DNA of 64,000 nt from Schmidtea polychroa (taxonomy: Eukaryota). The DNA is taken from NCBI GenBank assembly GCA_044892525.1, contig CM097885.1, positions 30,692,001 to 30,756,000 of the forward strand. The letters run 5' to 3'. Under the pieces are notes generated by a model. The model worked only from the letters and a program-made list of their open reading frames with translations. It had not been told where the DNA came from and ran no database searches. Of this stretch, positions 8,364 to 48,151 are shown in pieces (the stretch's first letter is position 1; each line of letters begins with the position of its first letter). The position numbers and the translations under genes were made by a program.

Positions 8364-9390
<1,027 letters not shown>

Positions 9391-10452: not shown

Positions 10453-13400
10453 TTAAATTATTGAATTGAATATTTGATCGAATTGTTGATCTCGAAGGAC
10501 AGGATCCGTTTCAGGCATGACGATATTACCACTACCATCTAAGTCATCAACCCCTCTATAATGTCCATATGCAAAACTTGAGTTTTTCCCTACCCAAGCT
10601 CTCTTATCGTCGTGATTATTTAAAGCTATTTTTGAGTTTTTAAAAGTAAATAGCTGATGATTCCGGGTTCCTATTCTAGTTTGAGGAACCGACATGACTG
10701 TGTTGTTGTTATAGCAGTCTAAATAAGATTGATGTTTGGTGTCGGTCCCCGGTAATTTTACGCCCTTAGCCCTCATTGTTGACTTATTTCCTAATAGGCT
10801 GTAACATTTAGGACGTAAGAAAACCCATTCACTATATCCTAACCCTTTACTCTCATCCTTAAACTTGCCTATAACTGAGTCAAGTCGCCTGGAATATAAA
10901 GGATGAGAGGGATCGTAATTTGAAGTATCTAAAAGGTCATCCGAAATCATCGCTTGTAATAAGATATCTAATTTTAAATTTTTAACCTCTAAAAAGAAAG
11001 AGTCGGTATCACCCGCTACTAAATTAATTTCACAATTATAAATATCCCGATATCGTTGTAGCTCTATATACTGTAACTGATACATCCGTAGTTTGGATAG
11101 ATCCAGTACTGATTGTCCGATGTAGCTGGGTCTATCCAAACATATAGAGTCCTTATTGAGATGCGCGGCAAACAGATCATCAGCTATTTCAATTGTTTTT
11201 CTGAATGCCGGTTTTGACGAATATGTAATTAATTTTTCAGATGAATTACATAGTCGCAAATTCATCCTCTTTTTAAGGTTCTCTACGGATTTACCGTACA
11301 GGCTATTATTATATAATTTAATTAAATCTCTATATATTTCACTAACTGCATTAGCACGCAAGTTAGTGTTTTTATCGATATAATGTTTAAAGATATGATT
11401 TTGTTTATATTTTATAGCTCTGTGTATATTTACAACCTTAGCCCCAAGTGAAAGATAAAGCCTGAGAAGCCTCCAATGAAGAACATAGTTCTTCTTTGGA
11501 TAATGCGTGAGCATCAGCTTCTCAACTTTTGAGTTAGGTGGGCACATCTTTTCCGGTCCAATCGGAAAGTCATTTAAAAAATCATGGAAATCAATCGGAA
11601 TCTCGATATCAACTTCCATAGTATATCCATATGGAAGTGTTTCGATATCCGCAACATTCACACACTCATCCAAAACTTCATTCAAATAAATCACCATAGG
11701 GAAGACTTTGGCTAAGAGCCCAACCATACAGATTATTTATATCAATATAAAATAATTCTGTATCATCTGAAGCAGCCGTGTAATGTTTGTTAACAAATGT
11801 TAACCCACCCCGTATTCCTCCCTCGTAAAAATTGAACATTTCCATGTTCTGTAAAAGTTCTATGGGTTCCGTTAATGTCATAGGCGCTGAGGCTCATGAC
11901 ATACCGGGAATTCCATAGAAATTTAAAAGTTCCAATCCATTGTATGCAATGGCATTGGCCCGGAATTGTTGAAAGTAATCAGCGAGTAGGAATACATCGA
12001 GTTTGAGGTAGGTTAACATATAGTCACGCAAATTTATACAGTTTTGCTGCGTCCAGATTAGTTGTGCCTTAGCGTACTCATCTTCGCTAACACCAGACCA
12101 AATAGGAGGTAGTTCATATGTAGTCTCAAGAACATCAAATGAGGTAGCAAAATCATACGGAAAAATACCTTTACAGTCAACTATAGTACCTTGAAAGACA
12201 GACGAAGTTAAAGGAAGAGAAGTTAGTGTTTTCACAGCCTTAGCTAAAGAGCAATTAACAAATTGCATAGAATCTATAAATCTCACAGCCAATTTATTAA
12301 TATGTACAATTAACGAAATAAATTTTTCGGTTGAGGTAGGAATTATGTTCAAGTCCCAAGATGGAAAGCCATTGAGACCGTGTTTTAAAATATGGTGGAG
12401 GTCATAACCTCGTAAATTATGAAAGACAATAGGTAGTAGACGATAAATTCGACGAGCAACATTACATTTTCGGCAAGATGCCCCTAGATATTTACCAGAG
12501 AAATGACAGTGGTCTCTTACCGGATTTACTATAGGTTTTTTACATAAGTAGCAATTTCGACAAGATTTAAACTGACGTTCCTCAATGAAAGACATCGGTC
12601 CTATCAACTTATTACCTTCCATATCATAATACGGTATCACAACAGTAGTAGCAATTTCCTCAACTTTTTTAAGAAAATCAGTAATACAGTCAAGGCCATA
12701 AAATTCAAAATATTGTTTAGTATTTTTATAATTATTTATTAATAAAAGGCCTGCTGAACTAGGCATATGAATTTGATGATGACGAACATCAGGGGGTAAA
12801 ACCGACTCAAAATCGGCATAAATTACAAAAGGTGGTGTTATTGTTTTTGAAAAATTTTGAAATTCGAGATTTTTATTTGAGGGTAAAGTGTAAAGGGTTG
12901 TACCTGTCTGATTTTTGGCACATAATGCGACATGAATATTAAACGCGTTATCTAATCGGAACCCGTTAAGACAGTGTGGACACCATTGACATCTTATTTG
13001 AACGTTACAGTCCGGGTTCCGATGGCAGTTCATTAGTCTATTGATATTGGTCACAGCAGTATAATGATATCGATCCTTATTTTCTAATAATAACAAATAA
13101 ATTGGGTTTCCGTCAGTGACCTTAGATCGATGGATAAGACTTAAATGAGGATGGTGAAAGACATAATTATCAGGGGTTTCATCGTCATCAATTATTATAG
13201 TTGGAGTGTATGAAAGCACATTAATGGCTAATTTTAAATTTATGTTTTTCTTTTCAAATTTAGGAATGTTGATTAATTTCATGGGACAATCCGTGACTTC
13301 GTCATATTTTAATTCACTCAAAAATTCAGTATATTTAGATACTCTTTGAGGATTTTCACCTATTTGATCTTTCTTTAATAAGTAAAGAATGGAATACAGA

Positions 13401-14365
13401 AAGCATTTATCGTCGCTATTTTTGATGTTAAGTATAGCTTTCTTATTTTTCAATTCAGAAGGGGTTTTAATATATTGATGTCCTGCCAAGCGACTAATTG
13501 GTTCATATTTAGTGATAATAAAATGTATCTCAAGAATGTTGATAACGCGCCATCCACTGCCTAAATAAGTAAATTGTTCTATTTTTTCATTAAGTTTATG
13601 AACCCCTTCGTTTAAAAAGTCATCAGAAAATGTCGTTGCATTATTAGAAAAGTAATTGTCACGGATTTCACCATCTTTTTCAAATCGAATTAATATCGCA
13701 AATTGAATTTTGACGCTCCCCATTTTATTAATTTCTTTTATTAATTTCGTTTTGATTTTATCAGTTAAAATTATTTTAATTAATTGCGCATCTGATACAT
13801 CAAAACGTAAAGTCTTGATAGCGCCATTTAAATTTATTGTGATTAAGGGTTCATTCTCTAAGGAAGAACCTCCAAATTGAATCAACTCATTATTTATAAT
13901 ATCTACATTATTTATAATAGGTATAATTTCATTATCTACAATATTTTCATTATTTATAATTTCATTATTTATAATAGGTATAATAGGTATAATAGGTACA
14001 ATTTCATTATTTATAATAGGTATAATTTCGTTATTTACAATAGGTATAATTTCATTATTTACAATAGGTATAATTTCATTATTTACAATATTTATAGAGT
14101 CATCATCATCACTGATTTCAATGACTTCCTTTTTAATAATTTTATTAGGTATATTATTTTCTATATTTTCAGCAGGTCTTTTATTTTTTGATGTTTTATT
14201 TTTTGATGTTTTATTTTGTATAATGTTTAAAATATCACAGTTATTTTTATTAATTTCCCTAAATAGGTCTTTTTTATTTACTTTAAAAGAATTTAAATGA
14301 TTTGAATGTTGTTTAAAAAATTCTTTATATCTAACCCTCTGGGCATATAAAAAATTTGATGCCAT
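10453..14365 (-). pseudogene. protein-primed DNA polymerase B of outer Polinton, disrupted
   Basis: YADFES exonuclease, RDHCH..G...C..CN, YIDINNLYG, KLYNNSLYGK and GDTDS motifs; in-frame TGA at 11894 and frameshift near 11690. Confidence 0.95.
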
Positions 14366-14742
14366 TAAATTTATGCATGTAATATTTTTTCATGTTTTTA
14401 TAGCATGAAATACCATGACCGATTGACGACATGCAATATCTTGGGAAAAAAGAACCTGATAAAAAAAATATATATATATAAATTAATTTTTAAAAATTAA
14501 TTCATTAACATATAAATAATAATAAAAAATCAAATATCGCAATGTCGATATTTTGATGTTATTATCATTCATTATTATACAAGTCTTTGTAATGAAAACT
14601 TGTATAATAATAAATGTTAATACTTAACTATTTAAGGTCATGTCTTTGTTATAACTTGCACATGTATTGGATGAGCACTGCATTTTCAGCATAATATTTT
14701 CTTCATTTTCCTCATTTTCATTATTATTATTATTATTATTAC

Positions 14743-16590: not shown

Positions 16591-16933
16591 TTAAACATCA
16601 AATTTTTTGTACAATAACCAAGCTAAACAATGTTGACCACATGTTTGGGTCAATGGATTTTGAAACATAGTTTTATTATACACAATAGGTTTTCCCATTG
16701 TTTGTAGTTTTGATATCAACAAAGCAGGGTAATAAAAACCCATAGGATCGAACACGAATATATTACCAGGTTTCATATATATAGCTATCCAATGTTCTCC
16801 ACCAAGATGCGACGATTGAGTATTGACGATTATTGCTTGATTATTGCTCAAATATTGAATTTTATCAAGAGGAAAAACTCCAACAAATTCATTTCCCAAT
16901 ATCTGTTTTCCGATTTTATTGACCTGAACAGAA
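16591..16933 (-). CDS. adenain-like cysteine protease of outer Polinton, exon 2 (predicted exon 1 at 31426-31457)
   Basis: FVGVFPLD, GEHWIAI, FDPMG and Q...CGQHC catalytic motifs. Confidence 0.9.
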
Positions 16934-16940
16934 CTACTTA

Positions 16941-17928
16941 AGTAGTGTGTTTATATCCCTAACCAAAACAGCCCTCCCAAAAAAACATACCTCCATTACG
17001 CTTAAACCATTAGAAAAACAACCTAAAACTTATACTTTTATAGTATTTTAACCCTATATTTTGAAAACAACCACCCTTAATGGCTCTAACTGTTTTAATC
17101 TTTAAAGCCTCAAACTCAAAAGCTTCAAACTAAAAACATAAAGAGAATAGAAAAGAAAATGGTATTATGAAAAAGTTAGAGGGCTATTTTGGTTAGGGAT
17201 ATTAACACACTACTTGAGGATGTCAACTAGCAAGTTGCTATTTGACTAATTTATAATTTTATAAATCTTAATCTTGATGTCTTGAAGAATAAAAAATTTT
17301 ATGAAATAGTAAAACTGCTCTGAGAGGACAGTGGTATTTTTATTTTTTTTTTCACTGTCCTCTCAACAGTTTTTTTGATCCGGATCATTTTTTTATTCAA
17401 CCTCTTTCGTTTATCGAATCTCTTCCAATATACAAGCTGGCCAGACTCATACATCAGAATCAATTCGATAATAGCAGCACGCCTTATTATTCACTTCTCG
17501 CTCGAATACGATTTCATCGGCGTTTTAAGCGTGCTGCTCGAAAGTACAAATGAATTCGAAAGCGAATCCGAAAGAGGTCCGAAAACAACCAAGAAATAAA
17601 TGTGCACATTATGGGATCGATCCGGGGGTGTTCGAAAGACTGGTGGCGATAATTACCGGTTCGCCACCACACCCGTTTCAATAATTTTTTTTCATATTTA
17701 TGTTTAAAAAATAAAATAAATAAAAAAAAATAAAATATATAAAATAAAATAAAAATAAATAAAATAAAATATAAATCTAAGATACCTACACCATTTTCAA
17801 TATTATTTTCAAATTTTTAATATTATTTTATGTTGAAAAAAAACTAACCGTAGTTAGGATTTGAACCGCTATCTATTTGAACCACTGTGCCAGTCTAGCC
17901 CACTGCGCTATCTAGGTTTCAGATTTTT
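16941..17928 (+). repeat. left TIR of inner Polinton (~990 bp)
   Basis: Near-identical inverse of 30402-31389. Confidence 0.95.
17836..17917 (-). ncRNA. tRNA-like putative Pol III RNA gene (left TIR copy)
   Basis: Inverse copy of 30413-30494 with A box, B box and T-run. Confidence 0.55.
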
Positions 17929-17956
17929 TGTCATTTTTTAAATTTTTATTATAAAA

Positions 17957-19249
17957 ATGAATAATATAAATCTTAAAATTCAAGAAAAAAATAAATTAAA
18001 TCTTGATTATAATAAAGAATTTACTCATGAAATCAAGAAAAATGATGTACTTAAAATCTCGCCAACTTCAGGATCTATTGCAAACTTAAATCGTAGGGGT
18101 GATATAGTTTTTCAATCTCTTCAAACATCAAACCCTATAGATATTTGTAATGCTAAATTATATTATAAAATTGAATTAGAAATTGAAGCAAACAAAGATA
18201 TAACCCTAGAAAATAATTTCTTTCCAAATTTATTCAACAACATGAGATTAAAACTAGGATCATCAGAAATTGAAACTGTTTTATATCCAGGAGTATATTC
18301 TACAATGTTAAATTTTATTTTAACTGGTTGTGATTATAAAAATGAATATGGAGAATTATCAGGTTGGATTCCTGATGTTAATAAAGGTGATTTAGATAAA
18401 GATGGTTTAGATATAAATTATGGTTATTATAAAAGAGCTGAACTTTATAAATCTAAAAAATTTGAAGGTTATTTTGAATTAAAACACCTATTTGGATTCC
18501 TTCAAAACTATAACCGTATATTTCATAATGTTTTTATAGAATTAACCTGTAATAGAGTAGAAGGTGATAAAAGATTGTTCTATGGAGCTGCAGATACAAA
18601 AGCTAAATTAAAATTATCAACACTTGAATTGCATATACCTGAATGGACACTAAACCCACATTCTGAGATTAAACTCCTTGAAAGATTAAATTCCAACAAG
18701 TCTATAAATGTAAATTATTTAAATAGAATCTGTAGTGAATTTAGTATGACAGAGGGTTCAACATATTCTATAAAGGTGGCAAATTTAGCATACCGACCAA
18801 GATATATCTTGATTGGATTCAAAGAAACAGATCCATCATTTCAAAAAAATAACAATCTATTTATTCAAAAGATTGGAGATGATAATTTAAAAACAATCCA
18901 AATTCAATTAAATAGTTCTTATTATCCAATAAATAGAATGGAATTTAATATTGAAAATAATGAAAACATATTCTCATATCTAAATTATATTGAAACATGT
19001 TATGATTTCAAAGTTGAACCGCAATTAAGTTTAGAAGATTTCAAAAATTTATATTCTATATTTTGTATAAATGTTTCAGACCAAGATGATCGCCTAGCCA
19101 TAAATAATGTTGATGTTACACTTCATATAACAAAGGATTCTAATTTTAAAGCTAAAGTATATACATTAATATTAGAAGAAAAGAAAATAGAAATGAAATT
19201 ATATGGTGGAAAGATTTCAATTATTGAAAATGTTAGGGGAGATTCTTAA
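17957..19249 (+). CDS. major capsid protein (double jelly-roll) of inner Polinton
   Basis: 430 aa; NNFFPNLFNNMRLKLG..EIE, RPRYILIGF, LNSSYYP and YSIFCINVS segments typical of Polinton MCP. Confidence 0.8.
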   Translation: MNNINLKIQEKNKLNLDYNKEFTHEIKKNDVLKISPTSGSIANLNRRGDIVFQSLQTSNPIDICNAKLYYKIELEIEANKDITLENNFFPNLFNNMRLKLGSSEIETVLYPGVYSTMLNFILTGCDYKNEYGELSGWIPDVNKGDLDKDGLDINYGYYKRAELYKSKKFEGYFELKHLFGFLQNYNRIFHNVFIELTCNRVEGDKRLFYGAADTKAKLKLSTLELHIPEWTLNPHSEIKLLERLNSNKSINVNYLNRICSEFSMTEGSTYSIKVANLAYRPRYILIGFKETDPSFQKNNNLFIQKIGDDNLKTIQIQLNSSYYPINRMEFNIENNENIFSYLNYIETCYDFKVEPQLSLEDFKNLYSIFCINVSDQDDRLAINNVDVTLHITKDSNFKAKVYTLILEEKKIEMKLYGGKISIIENVRGDS

Positions 19250-19266
19250 TATTTTAACATTTTAAA

Positions 19267-20649
19267 ATGTCTTTAAATAAACCCTATTGGAGATGTGAAA
19301 CATGTAATTGTCAAGTTACAAGACATCATAAAGCAAGTCATTTAAAAACTAAAAAACATATAGGAGTCGATATTACACGAACAGGAGGTGACATGCAATC
19401 TTCAAAAACAACATCTTCAATATTAAAACCTTTTACTACAGAAAAATATCCAGGTGAAAGACATTTATTTAAACACAACTATACTGGACCAGGAACAAGA
19501 TTAGATATTAGATTAGATGAAAATAATAATCCTAAACAAGGAGAAGAACCAATAAATAGAATTGATCAAGCAGCTTTAAAACATGATATTGCTTACAACT
19601 CAGAAGATCTTAGAGATAGACATGTTGCAGATGTGAATTTAATACATGATTTAAATAGTATCCAAAATCCATCAACCCAAGAAAAGATTCAAAGTGCTCT
19701 AGTTAAATTAGCAATGAAAGGTAAAATCTTTTTTGGAGCCGGACTTCCTAGAATAGCAAAAGATGTTGCTAATAAAAAGATCCTCGAACAAGCAGACATT
19801 GAAAGATCCCTCGAGAATATATCCAAGACTAGTTTACAAACCCAAACAGAATCAGAAATAAAATATGCCAACGAATTGCACCATGAATTTAGAAAAAATA
19901 AAAAATATTTAAAAGTTCAAGTACATGAAAAAGATCAAACATGGTCTGCAGATTTAGTCTTTATGCCAACCAAATCATCAGACCCTGAAAAATATAAAAT
20001 AATTTTAACAGTAATAGATTTATATACAAGATTTGCTTTTGCAAGATGTTTAGAAAATAAAACAGGATATTCTATTACAGAAGCATTTGAAAATATATTT
20101 GAACAATATCAAAGAATTCCAAAATATTTATGGTGTGATAAAGGAACAGAATTTTATAACAAAGTTTTTACAAAGTTTTTAAATGAAAATGATATTAAAT
20201 TATATTCAACAGAAAACGAAGGAAAAGCAGTTGTGGTTGAAAGATTAAATAGAACATTAAAAAATAAAATGTGGAAATATTTTACTGCTATTGGAAAACA
20301 AAAATGGAACAATGAATTGTTACAAAAGATTGTAAATGAATATAATAATGATGTACATAGTTCTATAAAATCAACACCTTTAAATGCTTCCTTGAATCCT
20401 TTGGAACTCATGAATCCTGTTGAAAATGATGTTATTGAAAAACCAAAGTTTAAAATTGGTGAACGAGTAAGAATATTTAAATACAAAAATAAATTTGAAA
20501 AAGGATTCACAGCAAAATGGACAAATGAAATTTTTATTATAAATAAAATACATTATACAACTCCAATAACATATAGCATCATTGATTTAAATAATGAAAA
20601 AATATTAGGTAGATTTTATAATAATGAGTTACAGAAAACAGATTTTTAA
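19267..20649 (+). CDS. zinc finger - parvovirus-type PLA2 - retroviral-like integrase fusion
   Basis: CETC...H...H finger; NYTGPGT...RIDQAALKHDIAY PLA2 motif; WSADL, CDKGTEF and VERLNRTLK DDE motifs. Confidence 0.9.
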   Translation: MSLNKPYWRCETCNCQVTRHHKASHLKTKKHIGVDITRTGGDMQSSKTTSSILKPFTTEKYPGERHLFKHNYTGPGTRLDIRLDENNNPKQGEEPINRIDQAALKHDIAYNSEDLRDRHVADVNLIHDLNSIQNPSTQEKIQSALVKLAMKGKIFFGAGLPRIAKDVANKKILEQADIERSLENISKTSLQTQTESEIKYANELHHEFRKNKKYLKVQVHEKDQTWSADLVFMPTKSSDPEKYKIILTVIDLYTRFAFARCLENKTGYSITEAFENIFEQYQRIPKYLWCDKGTEFYNKVFTKFLNENDIKLYSTENEGKAVVVERLNRTLKNKMWKYFTAIGKQKWNNELLQKIVNEYNNDVHSSIKSTPLNASLNPLELMNPVENDVIEKPKFKIGERVRIFKYKNKFEKGFTAKWTNEIFIINKIHYTTPITYSIIDLNNEKILGRFYNNELQKTDF

Positions 20650-20660
20650 GTCGACAAGCC

Positions 20661-21455
20661 CTAAAACAAACTTTTCCATATTTCAGCTTCTTCTCTATCC
20701 AAATAAATATAATTATATTTTTCTCTCCAATGATTATCAACAAACATATCAAACATATTCTTATCAGGTTCAACATTTGAAAATAAATCATTATAAATCA
20801 TATTCTTATCACGGCGATCTAATTTAAAAAATATAAAACAATTGGAATTATTTTTTATTGAATTTTTATCTAAAGCATAATATGTTTGAGATATATAAAT
20901 AACATTACAATTATTATGTCTTCCTCTTGTAAAGTAACTCTTTTGGATCTCTTGATTTTTCATGTTGACAACATCATCAAATATAACTAGATTCTTTTTA
21001 TCTTTAGGAAGTAAATCACAATGTAAAACATCTTCAGGTTTATTAGAGAATAAAACTTGAATTGCTTGCCCCTCCCTCTCTTCACAAATATAATCATTTT
21101 TATTACTAATATCTGATTCTAAAATCATTTCCTTATACCAATCAACCATATCACAAGGTTGAAAAACTTCTTCAGGACATCTATGTTGATTTTTAAAAAT
21201 ATCAATTATTGCTTTTTTAGTTAATTTATTTTCAAATCCACATTTCAAAAGTTGTAATTCTGGTTGATTTATGGTTGTAGAGTAAAAGATTAAATTATTA
21301 TAATCTAAAAAATCATCTTCAAGCAACATCCTCAAAAGAAGTACATTCTTTCCACATCCAGAAGAACCAACAATTAATAATCTAAAATTATCAGGAAATA
21401 CTTTATTATTAAATTTACTCTTATGTCTATTTAAAATTGGTTTCCAAATATCCAT
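20661..21455 (-). CDS. A32/FtsK-like packaging ATPase of inner Polinton
   Basis: Walker A GSSGCGKN, Walker B LVIFDD, TRGRHNN...ISQTY. Confidence 0.92.
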   Translation of the reverse strand: MDIWKPILNRHKSKFNNKVFPDNFRLLIVGSSGCGKNVLLLRMLLEDDFLDYNNLIFYSTTINQPELQLLKCGFENKLTKKAIIDIFKNQHRCPEEVFQPCDMVDWYKEMILESDISNKNDYICEEREGQAIQVLFSNKPEDVLHCDLLPKDKKNLVIFDDVVNMKNQEIQKSYFTRGRHNNCNVIYISQTYYALDKNSIKNNSNCFIFFKLDRRDKNMIYNDLFSNVEPDKNMFDMFVDNHWREKYNYIYLDREEAEIWKSLF

Positions 21456-21470
21456 TTTATTTATTATAAA

Positions 21471-22013
21471 ATGACAACTGAAGAATCTTTGCAAGAATTA
21501 ATAAATTCAAATAAAAATAAATCAGTAGTAATTGATGGTAAAAAATATTTTATTGGAAAACATGTAAAAGAACAAGTTAAAGAACGTATTAGAGAAGGTG
21601 GCATTCTTCCATTAGCTGCTTTAATACCTGCAATCATTGCTGCTTTATCAGGTGCTGCTGGAATAGCTGGAGGAATTGCAACTACAGTTCAAAAAGCTAA
21701 AGAATCTCAAAAGACAGACCTTGAAAAAGAAAAACTACAAACTGAAATCGAGAAAATGAAGGTAGGGCAAGCTAAAGGAAAATGTCTTAATCCATATCAG
21801 GGCAAAGGTCTCTATCTTGATCCATATAAAGGCAGAGGTTTAAATGATTTTTTAAAAAATCAAATTTCAACATCTGAATCTTTATCATCAAAAGATAAAG
21901 ATGATTTTAAAAAAATATGTAAATCTTTAAAGAATGGGTGTATTTGTAAAATTGGAGGAACTCCACAGAATAGTGGTAAAGGATTGTATTTAAAACCTTG
22001 GAAGGAACAATGA
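21471..22013 (+). CDS. virion core/membrane-active precursor-like protein
   Basis: REGG|ILPLAALIPAIIAAL hydrophobic helix and repeated GKGLYL motifs resembling adenain sites. Confidence 0.6.
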   Translation: MTTEESLQELINSNKNKSVVIDGKKYFIGKHVKEQVKERIREGGILPLAALIPAIIAALSGAAGIAGGIATTVQKAKESQKTDLEKEKLQTEIEKMKVGQAKGKCLNPYQGKGLYLDPYKGRGLNDFLKNQISTSESLSSKDKDDFKKICKSLKNGCICKIGGTPQNSGKGLYLKPWKEQ

Positions 22014-22035
22014 TACCATTTTTAATACCATTAAA

Positions 22036-22875
22036 ATGGTATATGAAGAAAGATTAGCACTTTTAAAAAAATTACAATCAGAACAAAACAAGTATAATAA
22101 AAAAGATACAACTCAACAAACTGAATCTATAATATTAAATGAGGTAATCCAACAACAACAAGGACCAACAATTAAAGCTATAGAGAGACTTAAAACTATA
22201 GAAGCTCCTCTAACCCCCGAACATAAAGCTATAGAAGCCCCTAGAAAGGAATTACTAAGATTAGTAGGAAAAAAACGTAGAAATAATATTGATTTAGAAG
22301 AAGATGAATTTCTTTCAAGATTAACACCTCATAAGACTCCAATTAATTTTAAAATTAATACATCACTAGCTCCATCAATTATACCTACTATAGGTTATGA
22401 TCCTAGAGGTTTTCAAACAATAACAATTAATAATCAAAAATTTTATATATATTTAAATTCAGAAAATAATCCATCGATTATTTCAACAAATACTTTTATG
22501 AATAGAGAGCGTGTTGACATTGAACTTTCAGATGATTTTCATGGATTAATTTCTGGATATATTCCAGATGGTGTCAAGAATGAAGAAATTGATAAATATT
22601 TAAACTTAATAAAATTAATAAATGGTAGCCCTAAAGCAAAACATATTCAAGATTTAAAGAAATATAAAGATAGAGATAAAACAGGCCCTCAAATTCAAAT
22701 CATTGAAGGAGAAGGCCTCAACCCTATAAATCTTTTTATTGAATTAAGAAAACTATTAGCAGCTAAAAAAGCAGGACATAATAATTTAGATTCTGATATT
22801 TTAAAGATTTCTAAAGATTTGTTAAAACAAGGAATAATTTCAAAAGATAAATTTAATAAGTATACGAAGTTATAA
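22036..22875 (+). CDS. conserved Polinton hypothetical protein
   Basis: 279-aa ORF with GEGL and LLAAKKAGHNN C-terminal motif. Confidence 0.6.
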   Translation: MVYEERLALLKKLQSEQNKYNKKDTTQQTESIILNEVIQQQQGPTIKAIERLKTIEAPLTPEHKAIEAPRKELLRLVGKKRRNNIDLEEDEFLSRLTPHKTPINFKINTSLAPSIIPTIGYDPRGFQTITINNQKFYIYLNSENNPSIISTNTFMNRERVDIELSDDFHGLISGYIPDGVKNEEIDKYLNLIKLINGSPKAKHIQDLKKYKDRDKTGPQIQIIEGEGLNPINLFIELRKLLAAKKAGHNNLDSDILKISKDLLKQGIISKDKFNKYTKL

Positions 22876-22897
22876 ATACGAAGTTATAAAATACAAA

Positions 22898-23338
22898 ATG
22901 GCTTCAATATTAGATTTTTTAAAAACATTTGGAATAAATGCAAAAACAAATTTTGATTTAAAAGATTATGCAGATTATTTAAATTTAAAAATTAAAATAT
23001 TAATGAACGATGAATTATATAAAATTGGAGGTACTCCCCTTAGACGAAGTCCCCAGAATATAATAATCAATTATCAAAATTCAAATGAGAAAGGATCTCA
23101 TTGGGTTTGTATATATAATAAATCTATATACTTTGATTCTTTTGGGATTAAACCCACTAAAGAAGTTGAAGATTATCTCTCGGACTACACTTTTAATTCT
23201 TTACAAGTTCAACCTAATAATACTAAAATATGTGGTATTTTAAGCTTATATGTTTTGTATAGATTGAATAAATCTAAAGGAGAAGGTTTCACTTCCTTAA
23301 TCCAAGAAATTTATAATGATTTAAAATCTTTACTATGA
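22898..23338 (+). CDS. adenain-like cysteine protease of inner Polinton
   Basis: GSHWVC, YFDSFG and Q...CG motifs. Confidence 0.9.
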   Translation: MASILDFLKTFGINAKTNFDLKDYADYLNLKIKILMNDELYKIGGTPLRRSPQNIIINYQNSNEKGSHWVCIYNKSIYFDSFGIKPTKEVEDYLSDYTFNSLQVQPNNTKICGILSLYVLYRLNKSKGEGFTSLIQEIYNDLKSLL

Positions 23339-24167
23339 AAATGGAGCTTCGCAACCTTCCGGAAGATTATTTAAAAAAAATAGCAAACATAATGTCACAT
23401 AAATATTCAAGAAGTTTATTAATAAATTCAAAAGAATCAGATTTTACTATAAATTTTGAAGATTCAATAAATTTAGATCAAGATTTAAATTATGAATTAG
23501 GATTCTTGTGGTTTAGCTGTTTTAATACTATTTTTAATATAAATAATAATAATAATAAATTTATTATATTTAAGAGTGATAATAGAAACCCCCTTTTGTT
23601 TCATTTATTCTCCCTAGTATATTGGAAAATAGTGAATATGAAAAGATTACTTCTAAGGAATACACCATTATAACAATCGAACCAGGATCATATGAAATAA
23701 CAGATTTAGCTAAAACAATTTTAAAAGAAACAAATGGAGAAGTAGAAATAAAAGCAGATATTCAAACTTCAAAATGTATTACAACTTTAAAAAATGTTGG
23801 ACTTGGTGTTACTACTTCTAGTTTCTTTCATAATATTTTAGGTTTTGAAGTCAAAGAATATCCACCATCAACCATTAAATCTAAAAATATTATACAATTA
23901 ACAAATACAAATTCTATAAATATAGAGTGTGATTGTATAATGGGATCATACATTAATGGTAAACATGCAAATATTTTATATTCCTTTCCTTCTAATACCG
24001 TGCGAGTTGGATATAAAATAGTTGAAAGAATGAATCCCCCAAATTATTTACCTTTATGCAGAAAAAATATAATGGATATTAGTTTTAGAATTGTTGATGA
24101 AAATGGGGAATTAATTAATTTTAATGGAGAAAATATTTCAATGTGTTTACATTTGAAACAAGTCTAG
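23335..24167 (+). CDS. minor capsid (penton-like) protein, split into two frames near 23575-23620
   Basis: DFTINFEDSINL, IEPGSYEI, INIECDCI.GSYING and ISFRIVDENGELINFNGE motifs. Confidence 0.75.
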
Positions 24168-24190
24168 ATTTTATTTTTATTACTATAAAA

Positions 24191-25174
24191 ATGAATTATG
24201 CTAGTTATAATAAGTTTGGATTATATAATGATGGATTAAAAGATGAAGATGTTATATCTCTTACAGAAAAGAGATATGTCAATGAAAGAGGTGATTCAAT
24301 GAAAGGAGATTTAATTTTAAATGGACACAAGATAAAAGATTTATCTTTTCCAACTGATGATTCTGATGCAGTTAATAAAAAATATACTGATTTAACAACA
24401 ACAAGAATTGAAAGTTTATTAGCAACAAAAATTGATTCAATAGAATCAAAGCTTAATAATATCGAACAACGATTTAATGATAAATTTGACAAGTTACAAA
24501 GTCTGTTAACTGAACAAGTTGTAAAGTTAAATACTAGCATATTAAATTCTAAAGATAAACAAATTATGAATACTAAATTTAATACAATATATAATATAAT
24601 AAATGAGATGATTACATCATTTAATAAAAGAATTTCAAATTTAGAGTCTCATGGAACACACATTAACACCACACATAGTATTAGAAAAAGAGCTGCTGAA
24701 TTAGAACAAAATAAAACATTATTACCCCATACATATAAACATTTTATAGAACCAAGTTTAATAACAACAAACAGTAAAGAATGGGGTGTTTTTATGGTTG
24801 TAAAGATTATTGATCCTTATTTCTTTTTGTTTGATGATAATAATGAAAGAATGAAATGGTTTGTGAAATGTGATTATAATAGTAAGCTTGAAAAGGGTGA
24901 TGTTATAATGACTAGTTATGATTTACCACACGGAGATTGGTATGTTAATACTCATTCACATGGACTACATAAAGTTAAAAGTAAGAATATTATTTTTAAA
25001 AGCACACTTGTACAATATATAGATTTAATATTTTATGAAAAAAAGTTTGATGTTGATGAAGTTCGTAAAGCATTGAGAGAATTGTATAAAGATATCCTCT
25101 CAACAAGAGTTTCTTTTGATATCCGAGTATTGGTGCCAGATGGTGCTCAGAAGAATAAAGTCTTATTTTTTTAA
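24191..25174 (+). CDS. putative fibre/spike-like protein
   Basis: MKGDLILNGHKIKDL..P....DAVNKKY tail-fibre-like repeat followed by a coiled coil. Confidence 0.5.
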   Translation: MNYASYNKFGLYNDGLKDEDVISLTEKRYVNERGDSMKGDLILNGHKIKDLSFPTDDSDAVNKKYTDLTTTRIESLLATKIDSIESKLNNIEQRFNDKFDKLQSLLTEQVVKLNTSILNSKDKQIMNTKFNTIYNIINEMITSFNKRISNLESHGTHINTTHSIRKRAAELEQNKTLLPHTYKHFIEPSLITTNSKEWGVFMVVKIIDPYFFLFDDNNERMKWFVKCDYNSKLEKGDVIMTSYDLPHGDWYVNTHSHGLHKVKSKNIIFKSTLVQYIDLIFYEKKFDVDEVRKALRELYKDILSTRVSFDIRVLVPDGAQKNKVLFF

Positions 25175-25182
25175 TTATTAAA

Positions 25183-25812
25183 ATGGAAGAAGTAAGAGAA
25201 GAAAAAATTTACCCAGAATTGAGATCATCAGGATATTATTCTTCCAAGGCCTCGGCTCCCACAGAACTTGAAATTATGAGAGTAAAAGAATTTAAATCAG
25301 AAACCTTACATTTACAAGATTTATTAAAGCATTATAAAAAAATTAAAAATAGATGGAATAAAGGGAATACAGTTTTAAAAGTTATAGGTTATTCTTTAGG
25401 ATTTGCATCTGCAATATTAACAGTTATTTTACCCATAACTTTACCAGTTGTTACTCTTTATTTTTTTTTGCACCTGTAATACTTGGAAGTATTTCTGTAG
25501 CTGATGGTTTCTTAACTGAAATAGTTTCATTATCTTATACTTCTAAAAAGAAAAGTTTATATCGTGAAGTTTGTTTATCAATAGAATTAGGAATCTCTAA
25601 ATTATTTTTATTTCAATTAAAAGCTTTAGAAGATGGAATCTTAACTGATGATGAAATAATGAAATCAAATCAAATAATACAAGATATTAAAAATGAGGTT
25701 ATAAGATTAAAAAGTGCTAATGTTATAAGTAATGAATATTCTAAAAAAATTAAACGAGAAAAATGGTTAAAGAATTCTTACTTATAAAATGGATGAATTT
25801 TTAAAAAAGTAG
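25183..25812 (+). pseudogene. Polinton transmembrane protein, frameshifted near 25465
   Basis: IYPEL...HYKKIKNRW then hydrophobic helices; reading continues in another frame after a T-run. Confidence 0.5.
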
Positions 25813-25881
25813 ATCAAGTTGCTATAGTTGCTTAAATTAATTGTCGACATTTTATTATTAAAAAATTAAATATCGTTGGTT

Positions 25882-28800
25882 TCAGTTATGGTTGAAAGCC
25901 AACCTATGAATCATTAATTTATGATCTTTAAATTCTTTATCACTTAGACCTTTTATATATTCAGGATCAGTATTAAAATATTTAAGTTCTAAACATATAG
26001 GATTAAAAACTTGAGAATATAAAGGTTTCTCGATTTGTCTCTCGGGATAAATAATTTCAACATTATAAATATCAAGATCAGTAATCTTTGTATCATATAA
26101 CTTATTCAAACTAGCAAGATTTTTTATTATCGGTATTAAATTATTTCCTATAGGAAGAGTTGTCTTTAAATCACTTAGTATGAATCTTTTATCATCATAA
26201 TTTGATAATGATACTTTTTGGGATTCTATCAAGTAAATATCATGGTTTTCACTTTTAAGTTGATGTATTTCATCAATTTTATCTTTATGACCTGGGTTTA
26301 ATGTATCTATATAATCTTGATGAGAAAGATTCTTTGCAACTGATCTCTGTATTCCTTTACATCTGTTATCCTTTACAGGTTTTTCCTCTTGTCCCTCAGG
26401 TCCTTTAGGGAATATAGGATATTTATATGAAATAATTTCCTCTTTTTCTGGGGTTTAAATATAATTTCTCGAGTTTCAAATTTAGGATTTGTAAATGTTT
26501 CGTATGAATATTGTTTAGCACGAATAAATATTCCATTTTCTATAGGAGTAAAAGGTTTTTCATCTTTAAATGAAAATAGTTCTCCAGATGAATTTATTAA
26601 ATTTGAAAGTATAGGATTTTCAGTCATATCTCTTTGTAAATCATGAGTTCTTATTGTTAAAAACATTGAATCTGTATCCATTGCATGCATTGATATATTA
26701 GAACCATATATAGGTTGTAAGATGTTATAATATGTTTCATACATTTGTAATTTTGAAAGTTCTAAAATTGTAAACCCTATAAATATTGGTTTATTGTATG
26801 TTTTCTCAAAATTCTTTAGTTCTATTGCAGTAAGATTTTCAGAAAATACTTGTGCGTTTTTAAATGTAGGCTTTCCTAGCATACGATTATAACGCTTAAT
26901 GTCTTTGGTAGTATTTGTTAGGAGTTCAATATGAATATATTTATCAACATTCTCCATTGTCTTCCCAAAGACTGAATTATTTAAAAGTTTATAATTATTG
27001 TCTTTAAAAAGGTTACCTTCTCTTTTTGCAATGTTTCGACACCTAATGTTCTCCTCGATAAAAGCCTTCATGAATGGTCTCTGTTTAAATCTTATGACAC
27101 TATGAACTTTTTTTAATATCATACCTCGTGAAAGATAAAACTGTAAAAGTCTATAGTGACAAAGATAAAACCTTCGATCTTTTTGATCACAAAGAAGTTT
27201 CATTGTTGGAGGTTTATCTTGTGAGATTTGCCATTCAGAAAGTTCGTTGATATCAATCTTTCTTCTTACAGGAGCTAAAGGGAAATATCTTGTTCCTGAT
27301 TTTATATCATCTGGATATAATAAGTCACATTCTACAAAGTAACCTATTGGAGAATCTTTAGGAGTTGAAAGTATTTCTTTCATAAGGTCTTTTAAGGATT
27401 CTTCTGAGGAATCTTCAGAGTATATTTCATGAAAGTCACTCATTGGTAAATATTGAGTCATAATTCCTGAATATAAAGCTGTTGCATCTATATAAAGTAT
27501 AAATATAGGATTTTTCATTGTTTCTAATAATTCTTTTAATTCCTCATTGTTAATTTTCATATATGGATCATCAGGGTGTTTAGAGAGTCTTCGGCTAGTA
27601 GTTATTGCATTTCTAGCTTTTATTTCTCTATTCCCCATTACTGAAGAGACTCCTCCTCTAATGTTTGTTTTAATTTGGTTAAACATATCGAGGTTAGTTA
27701 AAAGATCTATAATTTTATCACCTTCTTCTATATTTGAAGTCCAAATGGTATATAATAAAGTATCCCAAGCTAAAGAGGGTGCTGTTATATAATTGTAAGG
27801 TTTAAGAACAAAAGATTTTGTAAATTCTTCAAAGCAATCTGCTAGAATATAAACATCCAAGGATAAATACATACTTGTATATTCTCCTAAAGTTTTACAC
27901 TTGAATAATTCCCACATTTTATTTGCTCGAGAATATTCTTGATCTGTAATATGATATTTTTGAAGTTGTGAAGAGAAATCTTCTTGGCTAGGAAGACTTG
28001 TTTCATTATATTTTTCAAACGAGTCAACATAGTCATAAGGATATATTCCTTTTGCTAAGCATGTAGGATATTCTTCTGGAGGAATATTATTTTTTTCCAA
28101 GAATTCTCGAGTGATTTTAAAATTTTCTGGTTTCATTGTTTTTGCTACTGCATCTAGAGACATTTGGAGAAAGTTTAACGAGTCTATAAATTTTAATTTT
28201 CCATATTCAACTGATTTATATTTTTCCTTTGTAAGTCCTATAACTTTGAAAGAGTTTTTAGCATTTTCTGCTAAATGTTTAATAAATAGATGTATGTCAT
28301 AACCAAAACGATTATGAAATATAACAGGTACAAATTTAGGAGTATGGCAATTAAGATTGCAATTTTTATGAGCTGCTCCTCGATAATTATTTTCCTTTTT
28401 TAAATGATCATGATCGGGGACTTTTATGTTTGAAGATTGTCTTTCATGAAACATTCTTTGTTCTTCTTCTTCAATAGTTTCATTATTTGGAGGTTCCTCA
28501 TGGAGTTGATCCTCAAATGGTTGTTTACACATCCACCAATTTGAAGAATTTTCATATTCTTCCCATTGTTCGGTTGAAAGGTTTATTTCATATTTTGTTT
28601 TTAATACTTTAAATATTTCATGTTCTAGATCATTTATACTTTTAGTAAAATGATTTAAAACATCTTCTGAAGTTCCTTGAAATGTATATTCTCTAGATTC
28701 TATGAGTTCAGGATAATTACTTTTAAATAATAGTTTATAAGCAGAAGGTAATTGTTTAGTTTTTTTAACACTATTAGGTTTATTTCTTTTTCTTAGAAAG

Positions 28801-30332
28801 GCTTTCATCCTCTCTGGTTTCATCTTCTCTCCTGAGGAGTTCCATGAATCCATGAGTTTATTTTTTTCTATTATTTTTAAATATTGGTTAACCAAATCTT
28901 GTTTACGATTTATAGATTCAAAGTCTCCATAAACCACTCCTACTGTTTGTAGTAAATTTGAAAAGTTTTTAAAATTCATCTTGGGATCTGTAGGCATGTC
29001 AATTAAAGCTGGTTCATCTTTTTCACAAAATCTTGTATGTTTAATCATAGAGTTTTTAGTTGTTGAATAATGAAGACATCTTTTACATGTTCCTCCTCCA
29101 CTAGTTGGATTCTCTGGTGATGTAAAAGCTTGAAAGTTTTTTATTAAAACATAATGTTGATTATTTTTTTGTTCCAAGATTAAAAGATATATTTCTCTAG
29201 GGTTTTCGTTATCTTGTACTTCGTTATCCTTGGTTCCACTATCAGAAATGTAAATTGGAATAATTTCTCTACTTTTAATATTTTCCCCTTTAACCCGTTC
29301 ATAAATATTAATTTTAAGATTATTTAAACTTTTAAATTTTGGAATGTCTTCTAGTTTCATTGGATGTTTGAATTCTTTGGGAAATATTAATTCATTTTCA
29401 TATTGTTTGTATTTTGAAACTCTTTGAGGGTTTGATTCTTGAGGGTGTAAATGTGCAAGTATTGACCAGATGAAACATTTGTTATCATTATTCTGTACGT
29501 TTATAACATTTTTAGATGTAAAGGGTGTAGGAATATAAGATTTAGGATTAGGTGGTAATCCTCTCCAATAATCAATCACTAAAGTTTGGAAAGAGTTGAA
29601 TACTAAGTTTGAATCTCCTAATTCATTTTCTACTTCCTCTTGTTTTGCTTCTGCTGCTTTAATTATTTCTTTGATGGTTTTATCAAATCCTTTAGTTGAA
29701 AATAAATATTTAAAGGGTATTCCAATTTCAATATCTAAAGGAGTTGTCTTTTCTTCTGCTCCTCGCCAGTATTTTGCTTTGATTATAATTTTATATTTTA
29801 TAACATTATACCTTGTCAGTTTATAATTTTTTAAAGCTTCAGTGAAAGCATTTTTAATATTTTTTTTATTTTTATTTATATATTCTCCAGGAGTTGCAGG
29901 TCCATTAATTTTTAATTGAAATTCATCTATATGATAAAAATTATCCCAGTTATATTTTTCTCTTTCAACATGATCAGGTTCTCCTTCTGAATGACATTCC
30001 TCATCGTCAGAATTTTGTTTTTTATTTTTACATTCTTTTATATGTTCTAAATAATAGAAATTTAGTTTTGTTGAAAAGTTACAATGAGGACAATATATTT
30101 CTCTATTTTTCCCAATACAATTTTCAAAATGTTTATTATATCCAGAATGTAGAAATCTTCCTTTACATTTAGGACAAAGTTTTGAATTTGTATCATTAAG
30201 ATTATTTTCTTTTAATAAATGAGCTTTCGATTTTAAGTCAGAAATTAATCCAGTTTTATTTTTAAAAACTTTATTACAAATATTACAATTCATTTTTAGA
30301 AAAAATTTTTTTATTGGATACCCTGTTTTCAT
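25882..30332 (-). CDS. protein-primed DNA polymerase B of inner Polinton with N-terminal zinc fingers; one frameshift near 26375-26450
   Basis: YGDFES, YIDATALYS, KLLNNSVFGK and MDTDS motifs; C-terminal CKGI...DDKR lies in a second frame. Confidence 0.95.
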
Positions 30333-30401
30333 TTTATTTTTTAAATTTATATATTATTCATTTTCATAATGTGACAGTCTAATTTTTAGAATTTTATAAA
30401 T

Positions 30402-31389
30402 AAAAATCTGAAACCTAGATAGCGCAGTGGGCTAGACTGGCACAGTGGTTCAAATAGATAGCGGTTCAAATCCTAACTACGGTTAGTTTTTTTTCAACAT
30501 AAAATAATATTAAAAATTTGAAAATAATATTGAAAATGGTGTGGGTATCTTAGATGTATATTTTATTTTATTTATTTTTATTTTATTTTATATATTTTAT
30601 TTTTTTTTATTTATTTTATTTTTTAAACATAAATATGAAAAAAAAATTATTGAAACGGGTGTGGTGGCGAACCGGTAATTATCGCCACCAGTCTTTCGAA
30701 CACCCCCGGATCGATCCCATAATGTGCACATTTATTTCTTGGTTGTTTTCGGACCTCTTTCGGATTCGCTTTCGAATTCATTTGTACTTTCGAGCAGCAC
30801 GCTTAAAACGCCGATGAAATCGTATTCGAGCGAGAAGCGAATAATAAGGCGTGCTGCTATTATCGAATTGATTCTGATGTATGAGTCTGGCCAGCTTGTA
30901 TATTGGAAGAGATTCGATAAACGAAAGAGGTTGAATAAAAAAATGATCCGGATCAAAAAAACTGTTGAGAGGACAGTGAAAAAAAAAATAAAAATACCAC
31001 TGTCCTCTCAGAGCAGTTTTACTATTTCATAAAATTTTTTATTCTTCAAGACATCAAGATTAAGATTTATAAAATTATAAATTAGTCAAATAGCAACTTG
31101 CTAGTTGACATCCTCAAGTAGTGTGTTTATATCCCTAACCAAAATAGCCCTCTAACTTTTTCATAATACCATTTTCTTTTCTATTCTCTTTATGTTTTTA
31201 GTTTGAAGCTTTTGAGTTTGAGGCTTTAAAGATTAAAACAGTTAGAGCCATTAAGGGTGGTTGTTTTCAAAATATAGGGTTAAAATACTATAAAAGTATA
31301 AGTTTTAGGTTGTTTTCTAATGGTTTAAGCGTAATGGAGGTATGTTTTGTTGGGAGGGCTGTTTTGGTTAGGGATATAAACACACTACT
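30402..31389 (-). repeat. right TIR of inner Polinton
   Basis: Inverse of 16941-17928. Confidence 0.95.
30413..30494 (+). ncRNA. tRNA-like putative Pol III RNA gene (right TIR copy)
   Basis: A box TAGCGCAGTGGG 30420-30431, B box GGTTCAAATCC 30463-30473, T8 terminator 30487-30494; ACCTAG/CTAcGGT acceptor-like stem. Confidence 0.55.
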
Positions 31390-31457
31390 TACTTAAATAA
31401 ATCCAGAGTATAAAAAACAACTTACTCCATGACAACGTTTTGTGTTTCAATATACAT

Positions 31458-32678
31458 TTATACCAACACAGTTCTATTTGCAGTAATTTGAACTTCATTT
31501 TCAAATACTCAATATATTATAACATGTACTGGTTCAGTAATAGCTTTTGCAAACTTTATATCCAGTCGTAAATTTCCATTTTGAGGTAATTGACTTTGAT
31601 TTCAATCAAAATCAGGGGCTAAAACAAATTTAAAAAATGGGTATTTGCTTTTAAAATCTTTTAGAGTTATTCCGCAATTCAAATTTTTATCTAAATAACC
31701 CAGATTTCTAACAATACTCTGCATATATGTCGCACAGTAATTGTCATTCTCGAAATCTTGAATATATGTTTCTCTATAATCAGTATTTTTCGACAAAGTC
31801 AATGATGTAACAACAAAGGTTTTGAAAATTGAGCTGGACGCAGTATATGATCCATTATATTGTGTTTCACTTTGAAATGTTATCAGAATAAAATTAGGCA
31901 TTCTTCTGTCACCAAATATTTGTTCTTTATAGAATGATGAAGCACCTTTAGCAATAGCAAATTGTACAATTTCCTTTGTTTTTAATGGATAAATTGCATG
32001 TTTTGAATTAAGACCCAATTGATGACCTGCTAATACTGAGGGGTCTACTCGTACTCTTCTCACCAATAAATTTGCATCAACTAATTGACATATTGGTGCA
32101 CCAGTTGCACTAGTAAGAGATAATGCAGAATCAGACCTTTTCAGTCTAATATGTACATTAACTCCCGGTAGTAAATATTTCGGTTGATCCATAAAATCAA
32201 GTTGTAATGATGAGCACATGGTGAAAACCTTTGAGCCTTTTGCCCACTTTTTTATTTCATCATCACTGCCATAACCCATAGGAGTAAGACATGTATTTTT
32301 AGTATCAGAATTGTAATTTAAAATAGTTTCTATTAATGCCTTGTGAATGAATGTATTATTTCCGCCCTCAATCTTGATATTATTAAATCCCAACACTGCA
32401 TCTTTAAAAAGAGTATGAAACAGGAAATTGTTCGGTATTACATCTGCATTGGCATCCAAAACTTTTCTATCTTTATCTACAACCTTAATCTGAACAGTCA
32501 ATAAAGTATCGTTCAAATCTAAATATTCGGTTTGCGAACCATTAATATAAAACTCGATATCATTTCTACTATCGGTAATTGAATTCATAGGAAAAACTTC
32601 CTCAAATGCCCCAAATTCTATTACAGCCTGGGGCGACGGTCTATCAAATATACATAATTCAGATTTACCACAAATCAT
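31458..32678 (-). pseudogene. major capsid protein of outer Polinton, two in-frame TGA stops near the C-terminus
   Basis: KSELCIF, IEFYING..EYLDLNDTLL, QPKYLLPGV; the frame continues past the stops to GNLRLDIKFA...ENEVQITANRTVLV. Confidence 0.9.
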
Positions 32679-33043
32679 TTTGCAAATATAGTTCCATGTC
32701 CTTTCATTCGTTTGTTTATACGTGATATTCCATGTCTTTTACGTTTTGGAGCATGAGCTGGAGCTGGAGGTTTTTCTTTTTGAAACATACCTGCAACCCC
32801 GGGTAAAACTTTCCCTAATTCTGCTAAAGCATTTGTTTTTAGAGATGGTAATATTTTCTGTTCATTCATAATAACATCTTTTGCAGTTTTCATACCAAAA
32901 CTACCAATACGTTTAAGAATAGGCAGGGCAAATCTACCAATTGTTCTCAACCATCCTGATCCGTACTGTTTACCAATAAAATATGGTAATTCACCACCAG
33001 ATTGGCTACCACTATACATACTAATAATATCAGAATTAGCCAT
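32675..33043 (-). CDS. basic core protein precursor-like
   Basis: QSGG, QYGSG|WLRTIGRFALPILK amphipathic helix, basic tail; lies between penton and MCP. Confidence 0.7.
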   Translation of the reverse strand: MANSDIISMYSGSQSGGELPYFIGKQYGSGWLRTIGRFALPILKRIGSFGMKTAKDVIMNEQKILPSLKTNALAELGKVLPGVAGMFQKEKPPAPAHAPKRKRHGISRINKRMKGHGTIFAK

Positions 33044-34048
33044 TTATTTTACGAAAATGTAATGTCAAATGAGTTTTTGAACCTTTTGGAAATTCGATTA
33101 ATTGACCAGAATCATCTCTTATATTTATTTCTATATTGTTTATACAAGATGTTGAAACAGGTAAATACATGGGATTTTCTACATTGATTTGTACAACTTC
33201 ATCTTGATCATGTTTTTCAATCCATATAGATTTCATTAAAGGAACACTAGAATCGCCAAAAATAACTGGTTCCACGATATTACTGTAAATGAACTTTTGC
33301 TGATGATGTTTAAGGATTTTCGGTTTGTTTGTTCCTTCACAAATTTGTTCATTTTGTGTACATATTGGTTTAGTCAATCCTAATGTTTTTGTCAAATTTG
33401 AGTCAAATTTAACTTGACTAAGATTAGAATTTATACTAAATCTAAATACTTTATCTTTTTGAAGCTCGAAAACTGTTAAAATCTCACTACAATTGTCAGC
33501 TAAAAAGGTTTGTAATTGTTCGAGGTCTGTAATATATAAATTATCTTTAAAAGTATATGCATGCTCAGTTATTTCAATGTATGATAGCTTAAATTTGAAT
33601 TCCACTAAATTATTAGTTTTTGGAAGTGTAGAGAGATTTATTTTGACTGTATCATTAAATACATTACGTAAATCAGTAAATCCAAGACGTTTAGCATCAG
33701 CCATTGTAGAAAATAAAATTTCGAATGGCTTATTCAAGCAATTCATGTATAAATATTGACCATCATCATAAATTATAGGTTTCCTTGATTTCGATGAACT
33801 CGTCAAGTTATAACTATCTTTATCAATAAGAACATTAATATATTCCGTTACTGCTACTTTCTTATTATATTCAATAACAGATTTGCTATAGATTGGGAAT
33901 AAATTGTATACAAATGTAAAATCCAACAGAGCAACTTCCCAGTCATTATCCAAATAGATAGGGTTTTGGAGTTCGATGATGAATTTGCTTGCTTGATTGT
34001 CTGGATGAATTAATGGACAACTATTGCTCGGCAAAATAGTATAAAAAT

Positions 34049-35215
<1,167 letters not shown>

Positions 35216-40111: not shown

Positions 40112-40972
<861 letters not shown>

Positions 40973-48150: not shown

Positions 48151-48151
48151 G

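Follow-up and report, generated by a model that had tools for sequence, protein, structure and literature searches.

In this study, we analysed a window of 64,000 nucleotides from Schmidtea polychroa (contig CM097885.1, positions 30,692,001 to 30,756,000; G000:C1:30692001-30756000 in the 781-Mb genome), in which one Polinton lies inside another Polinton of a different family. The inner element, with an integrase fused to a PLA2-like domain, interrupts the protease gene of the outer element, whose integrase carries a chromodomain. As a structure, the nest is genuine and not a matter of chance, and probably it arose by untargeted integration, each of the two families making up about 5% of the sampled DNA. 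The window has 28% GC and contains long ATT and AT microsatellites.

The inner Polinton has a total length of 14,449 bp and runs from AGTAGT, starting at window position 16941, to ACTACT, ending at 31389. It is bordered by a target-site duplication (TSD) of TACTTA (16935-16940 and 31390-31395), which is present as a single hexamer in sister copies of the outer element. Its terminal inverted repeats (TIRs) of about 989 bp (left, 16941-17929, plus strand; right, 30402-31389, minus strand) are separated by 2 gaps and by mismatches at 5 of 987 aligned positions, corresponding to 0.5% divergence. The outer Polinton (8364-40972) likewise has AGTAGT at its left and ACTACT at its right end, measures about 18.2 kb without the insert, and has a TSD matching at five of six positions (AATATG at 8358-8363, GATATG at 40973-40978). 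For the detection of the empty site, the 301 bases left of the inner junction were searched against the genome, giving 40 scored matches, and 25 loci including this one were compared. In 23 of the 24 other outer copies the site is empty and the separately aligned flanks overlap by exactly 6 bp, while the 24th copy has a deletion at this position; an inner tip was present in none of the 24. The insertion splits the 5′ end of the outer C5 (adenain-like) protease gene, whose main part is located at 16594-16938 on the minus strand (PF00770, E 1.6e-6) and whose 5′ end follows just right of 31395. The boundaries and the empty sites thus bear out the original prediction of a 14.4-kb element with near-identical TIRs and a perfect TACTTA duplication inside another Polinton. 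Both elements had also been called complete, which applies to their ends and gene sets and not to their intactness, both carrying lesions.

The exact duplication of 6 bp that are single in sister copies, together with the colinearity of the outer element on both sides of the insert, makes an assembly chimera formed from two high-copy repeats a barely credible explanation of the nest, even with hundreds of near-identical copies in both families. The outer five-of-six duplication furthermore matches an empty site within the window, and a similar nest with a perfect TSD exists elsewhere in the genome. A chimera would be in line with the finding that no junction-bridging contig was present among the Logan short-read records listed (four runs per junction, 6 of 22 runs listed, possibly from other individuals); loose contig ends matching the empty site were found in all four runs compared with the left junction.

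The outer element was itself inserted into a long terminal repeat (LTR) of a Gypsy retrotransposon on the plus strand, the left part of which (6525-8363) differs by 1.42% and the right part of which (40973-41944, ending in CA) by 0.93% from a sister LTR. This uninterrupted sister (42228-45115, minus strand) is the 3′ LTR of a Gypsy element with gag-pol at 45113-49246 and carries the empty site of the outer insertion with a single GATATG. Because the outer Polinton sits in an LTR whose sister has the empty site and the inner one sits in the outer, the insertion order Gypsy LTR, outer Polinton, inner Polinton is certain. For the inverted repeat on either side of the outer element, a giant palindromic element was also considered; this was rejected in favour of two facing Gypsy LTRs on the basis of the polypurine tract, the TG...CA ends and the adjacent gag-pol. 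The two copies are about 280 bp apart. Each 2.9-kb LTR contains an antisense 222-aa RING-finger open reading frame (ORF; 7235-7903 and 43687-44355), and a further Gypsy LTR stretch is located at 51434-52569.

Judged from their predicted proteins, the inner and outer elements are distinct families that use one class of polymerase. Both have AGTAGT tips, and they differ in gene order, capsid and integrase architecture, as had been expected, the integrase domains being assigned by Pfam. The integrases share 29% identity. A BLASTP comparison of the two major capsid proteins (MCPs) gave no significant match (E 0.26), and their homologue sets are separate, with 41 proteins for the inner and 150 (120 listed) for the outer MCP. 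Both fold as double jelly rolls in predicted structures, and generic double-jelly-roll capsids were among the top 50 matches in fold searches. The pPolB polymerases are 26% and 29% identical over two ORFs, are colinear over most of their length, and have common motifs as well as a zinc-binding Endonuclease_7-like insert; one and the same pair of Pfam families is found in the Atlas neighbours of each. For the C-terminal region of pPolB, a quick, unrooted tree was calculated from 54 rows, of which 2 were the window proteins, 5 were copies from the genome and 47 were taken from the 120 homologues listed. In this tree, the inner polymerase falls in a clade of four (Shimodaira-Hasegawa-like approximate likelihood-ratio support, SH-aLRT, 99) and the outer one in a clade of six (SH-aLRT 100), on a long branch beside a protein from a crinoid, and proteins of corals, insects and molluscs lie between the two clades, as far as an unrooted tree can tell. 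The outer lineage falls among homologues retrieved by the inner query. A placement of both polymerases in the same clade had been named as evidence against two lineages; they do belong together at the level of the class, but at the level of subclades they are separate. For rooting with the other Polinton polymerase class, IMG/VR was searched with both capsid alignments without any match. Among the best 30 of 91 PF03175 loci in the genome, only relatives of the outer polymerase were found among the top matches examined. Many genomic pPolB ORFs have 1,200-1,480 codons and, where checked, 55-65% identity to the outer polymerase, some of them occurring as inverted pairs about 10 kb apart. Also, outer-family copies look mosaic: at locus L181, the capsid and integrase blocks are 89-90% identical to the copy in the window, and pPolB about 70%.

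According to the accessible part of Starrett et al. 2021 (PMC8502044), PLA2 together with pX is the hallmark of the Alpha adintovirus virion module and Cupiennin/GasderminX that of the Beta module, and in some adintoviruses a Beta virion module is combined with an Alpha PolB. The nest had been described as a beta-type element inside an alpha-type one. Because PLA2 and pX, the Alpha hallmarks, sit in the inner element, these labels are reversed if anything. The inner element has the parvovirus-type PLA2 and the pX-like domain of the Alpha (Mayetiola-class) virion module and thereby also the PLA2 that is absent from the Beta module; it differs in that PLA2X is one gene in the Alpha adintoviruses as described there, whereas the inner element carries PLA2 as a fusion with the integrase and has a separate ORF for the pX-like domain. 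The outer element resembles the Beta (Terrapene-class) module and its hybrids (same source) by the lack of a PLA2 match, by the order integrase-penton-small ORF-hexon-protease, and by a pPolB of the class of the inner element. No GasderminX was identified in the outer element, in which a 122-aa ORF in the matching position has no Pfam match. The idea of one alpha and one beta polymerase is contradicted by the colinear alignment, the insert present in both, and the common Pfam pair of the Atlas neighbours. By these hallmarks, the inner element leans towards Alpha and the outer capsid block towards Beta, and neither was filed under a genus. The Mayetiola and Terrapene exemplars were not among the top 50 fold matches of the two MCPs, and the accessible parts of PMC3671162, PMC4028283, PMC11161782 and PMC11131425 contained no helpful group definitions.

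The prediction of a younger element in an older one is correct for the order of insertion at this locus, but the outer element does not appear to be old. All 39 other matches listed for the outer MCP gene have 99% identity, compared with 96-98% for the 39 other matches listed for the inner MCP gene, and for 301 bases of the outer integrase, 31 other copies score lower than the self match by about one mismatch. By this similarity the outer element is young; dates were not assigned because no rate was at hand. A point against this is the divergence of the outer TIRs, which differ at 43 of 821 aligned bases (a number inflated by tandem repeats) and at 4 of 104 in the unique part, more than a very recent insertion suggests. 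Lesions were called by projecting the natural ORFs of sister copies onto the window. The inner element has fewer of them, as predicted, namely three frameshifts (penton, small membrane protein and pPolB C-terminus) compared with seven point lesions in the outer element (two frameshifts and one stop in pPolB, two stops in the MCP gene, one frameshift in the ATPase gene and one stop in the basic ORF beside it) plus the split protease. Both insertions are probably recent and close in time.

To place the nest in a genome-wide frame, exact tip patterns were counted, amounting to at least 300 for the outer and at least 162 for the inner family, and insertion sites were sampled from the first 100 tip matches listed per family. 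Of 70 inner tip loci, 11 were removed (second ends and duplicated flanks), leaving 59 sites or 58 without this locus; 70 outer loci were reduced by 8 to 62. About ten further listed inner ends stayed outside the count, eight of them without adjacent outer DNA. The background was determined from 60 regularly spaced stretches of C1 and C2 (595 kb), divided into 595 tiles scored by the same rule as the tips, and consists of 5.2% outer-like and 5.7% inner-like DNA, about 11% together. An enrichment of inner insertions in outer copies was not found in these 58 sites: four inner ends abut outer-like DNA by the main rule (2.7 expected, P=0.30), and two do so at 85% identity or more (1.1 expected, P=0.29). 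Inner ends in inner DNA were not observed (0 of 58, 2.4 expected, P=0.15).

Several results nevertheless weigh against purely untargeted integration. Within 200 bp of inner ends, the loosest rule, outer-like DNA was found at 7 of 58 sites (3.3 expected, P=0.08), so that the inner family may have a two- to three-fold preference for outer DNA. Nesting also looks one-sided, with no outer end in inner DNA (0 of 62, 2.6 expected) and no inner end in its own family; the comparison of inner-in-outer with outer-in-inner cases gave P=0.05 in Fisher's test. Outer ends lie in DNA of either family only once in 62 sites (none inner, one outer-like; 5.5 or 7.0 expected, P=0.05 and 0.02) in a test that was post hoc and one of twelve. 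Finally, the background from 60 stretches has a 95% interval of 1.7-8.5% for the main rule. These data and the occurrence of several independent nests could be explained by an inner family that prefers Polintons as targets, like a hyperparasite of the outer family comparable to Ngaro in endogenous virophages, possibly via replicating extrachromosomal copies or a common chromatin state. We regard this explanation as unlikely, as P is about 0.3 under both the main and the strict rule and at least 51 of the 58 sites lie outside outer-like DNA, compared with 91% of type 1 Ngaros located in EMALEs (PMC8547959, accessible part). The nests have neither a common site nor a target motif, and insertion into replicating copies should yield repeated composites, which were seen at none of the 24 sister loci.

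The second complete inner-in-outer nest (G000:C1:96446227-96479054) is 32.8 kb long, with the insertion at outer position ~39010 and a perfect ACCATT TSD. Other nests are located at outer positions ~34200 (C3:17.02-17.03 Mb) and ~38774 and in the TIR. Where both inner ends could be paired, eight of nine have a perfect 6-bp TSD, and all hexamers are different. At L297 (G000:C1:118098000-118104000), DNA of the outer family runs directly into the middle of an inner MCP gene, forming a fused open frame, which likely represents a deletion within another nest.

Integrases of the rve type make a staggered cut that is repaired into a target duplication. Under untargeted integration, the inner family's own rve integrase would have made the insertion by a 6-bp staggered cut with no target consensus, and the insertion may have persisted since no harm is done by a hit in a repeat copy that is dead or dispensable. 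The composite would then be an inert dead end and not a functional unit. The original prediction had raised cross-mobilisation through the shared tips, by which either integrase could move the other element or the 32.6-kb composite, so that the latter would work as a functional unit or as a stage on the way to module exchange. Open integrase ORFs, (AGT)2 ends and 6-bp TSDs are common to the two elements; but the tips agree for six bases only and are unrelated thereafter, and among the end motifs of vertebrate Mavericks, (AGT)2//(ACT)2 is the most frequent according to the accessible part of PMC8097293. Cross-mobilisation is without support because the common tip is only this generic (AGT)2, and the composite is absent from the 24 sister loci. 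Polymerase/capsid hybrids have been published for adintoviruses (PMC8502044) and nematode Polintons (PMC10748475), as far as the accessible parts describe them, and an origin of this kind is possible for the outer element, its family's pPolB being far more diverged than the capsid (70% vs 89% at L181). With the outer protease broken by the insertion, both polymerases frameshifted, and no hybrid-tipped element with one tip per family noticed, though none was systematically searched for, cross-mobilisation is very improbable.

Turning to the genes, the inner element (16941-31389, delimited by its ends and gene set) encodes from left to right the MCP, the PLA2-integrase fusion, an A32 ATPase (reverse), a pX-like protein, an unknown ORF, the protease, the penton, a second unknown ORF, a small hydrophobic protein and pPolB (reverse). 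Of the Polinton/Maverick features it has long TIRs, (AGT)2//(ACT)2 ends, a 6-bp TSD, pPolB, an rve integrase, a double-jelly-roll MCP and an A32 ATPase. The MCP of 430 aa (17957-19249, plus strand) is open, matches PF21738 (E 5e-27), and was modelled with a pLDDT score of 90 and with matches at the fold level. It is followed on the same strand by the open 460-aa ORF (19267-20649) with the PLA2-like domain (PF08398) fused to the rve integrase (PF00665, E 2e-12) and no chromodomain match. The predicted A32-type packaging ATPase of 264 aa is also open (20661-21455, minus strand; PF04665). On the plus strand follow a pX-like core protein of 180 aa (21471-22013), assigned by an Adeno_PX match (E 4e-4) under the curated cut-off, and a 279-aa ORF without Pfam match (22036-22875). 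A putative cysteine protease (22898-23338) with no Pfam or PDB match of its own was assigned by 31% identity to the outer protease (E 7e-7), and a putative minor capsid protein or penton (23335-24167), with a frameshift between ~23520 and 23670, by its position and a weak match to the outer penton (E 1.5e-5). Next to these, a coiled-coil-rich unknown ORF of 327 aa (24191-25174) and, by ORF projection, a small hydrophobic, putative membrane protein (25183-25790, frameshift near 25460) were found, all on the plus strand. The pPolB gene of the Endonuclease_7-insert class (25885-30332, minus strand; PF03175, E 1e-13) has a 1319-aa ORF and a frameshift near 26440.

The terminal 36 bp of the inner element are repeated in inverted orientation at positions 239-274 of each TIR, in the left one at 17179-17214, so that each tip (16941-17214 and 31116-31389) could fold as a 274-nt stem-loop, possibly a replication-origin or end structure. 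The inverted tip copy recurs across most inner-family copies (with a strict pattern, in 19 of 30 tips). A miniature family of solo 274-bp tip elements was considered and gained no evidence, 27 of the 30 tips continuing into the TIR interior.

The outer genes are, in their order on the minus strand, accessory ORFs, a TBP-like ORF (plus strand), the ATPase, a basic ORF, the rve integrase with chromodomain, the penton, the 122-aa ORF, the MCP, the protease, pPolB and a RING ORF. The element, delimited by its ends and TSD, shows the Polinton/Maverick features TIRs, (AGT)2 ends, a 6-bp TSD, pPolB, an rve integrase, a protease, a double-jelly-roll MCP and a P-loop ATPase. Perfect TSDs occur in sister pairs of this family, e.g., L067/L068, L070/L071, L072/L073 and L083/L084, compared with five of six positions at this locus. 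The RING-finger ORF (9796-10140, plus strand) matches zf-C3HC4_3. The pPolB gene (10453-14477, minus strand; Pfam match, same class as the inner one) has frameshifts near 14340 and 11690 and a stop near 11895, and the MCP gene (31458-32678, minus strand), identified by fold and homologues, has two internal stops. Between MCP and penton, the 122-aa ORF (32675-33043, minus strand) was named only by its PW/cupiennin-like position, and its presumed likeness to cupiennin is our assumption. An open 355-aa ORF without Pfam match (33036-34103, minus strand), which we take from its position to be the penton, encodes a putative minor capsid protein.

The rve integrase with C-terminal chromodomain (34049-35215, minus strand; Pfam) contains a 153-nt GT...AG insert of ATT repeats in its catalytic core (34675-34827). 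Such an insert was found at 24 of 25 loci of the outer family, with lengths of 66-228 nt, only one of the 24 not being a multiple of three, and a divergent copy has 40 nt of non-repeat sequence instead. The insert is likely a spliceosomal intron and not a lesion; no integrase intron of this kind in animals was found in our literature search. The packaging ATPase (35833-36460, minus strand), frameshifted near 36175, gives weak Pfam matches as the gene is split. The TBP-like ORF (36560-36997, plus strand; PF00352, E 1.6e-13) stands head to head with the ATPase-integrase-capsid block. In the outer TIRs (left, 8364-9345, plus strand; right, 40112-40972, minus strand), tandem repeats contain 20 and 15 TGA(C/G)TCA motifs, respectively (8364-9050 and 40430-40972), compared with 7 in the remaining window. 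We take the motif to be an AP-1-type site, and the repeats might act as a host-responsive enhancer.

Beyond the nest and the Gypsy LTRs, a third pPolB gene, decayed and belonging to the outer lineage, is located at about 57000-59500 (67% DNA identity to the outer pPolB), and ACTACT ends at 53352 and 53363 may mark another element end. A 283-aa ORF at 53969-54820 has a weak zinc-finger match (PF25431) and presumably resembles the N-terminus of a hAT-type transposase.

Compared with the animal Polintons/Mavericks described in the accessible part of Barreat and Katzourakis 2021 (PMC8097293), both elements agree in TIRs, ends, TSD, pPolB, rve integrase, ATPase, protease, and MCP and minor capsid genes, the inner protease and penton by weak matches. 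The outer run protease-MCP-small ORF-penton-integrase follows the vertebrate gene set given there, to which the outer element adds a TBP-like gene, whereas the inner element has the PLA2-integrase fusion and an unrelated MCP family. Vertebrate Polintons are described in the same source as intronless, a trend outside the core definition, whereas the outer integrase is likely intron-bearing. Nests of related kinds are known from other hosts, here cited from the accessible parts of the respective papers. In the protist Halocafeteria seosinensis, DNA-virus elements of different lineages (5 Polinton-like viruses, PLVs, and 9 virophages) are nested in each other and in host transposons (bioRxiv 10.64898/2026.07.28.741278), whereas the present case concerns two animal Polinton families. 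Ngaro retrotransposons in the EMALE virophages of Cafeteria (PMC8547959) are likewise mobile elements inside an endogenous DNA virus, but they represent real targeting, while outer-like DNA received only about 7-12% of the inner ends, close to the background. Retrotransposons also nest in cryptophyte PLVs (PMC12220804), and polymerase swaps between co-resident Polintons were described for nematodes (PMC10748475). No paper on an animal Polinton inside another was found in our literature search, which did not cover most subscription journals.

Since nests are expected where two families cover about 11% of the sampled DNA, the single locus is of little weight by itself. Its value lies in a clean record of insertion order, from the Gypsy LTR to the chromodomain-type Polinton to the PLA2-type Polinton, and in two lineages with unrelated capsids and the same polymerase class that moved within one animal germ line during roughly the same period. 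Such co-mobility is a precondition for the module swaps published for adintoviruses. A difference in target choice between the families, in which the chromodomain family avoids Polinton DNA (1 of 62) and the chromodomain-less PLA2-integrase family enters the other at or above chance and never itself (0 of 58), is a tentative and rather doubtful idea. The genome-wide insertion set, with hundreds of insertions per family, and not this locus could reveal whether the integrase chromodomain steers target choice; if true, target choice encoded by the integrase, together with self-avoidance, would occur among integrating DNA viruses.

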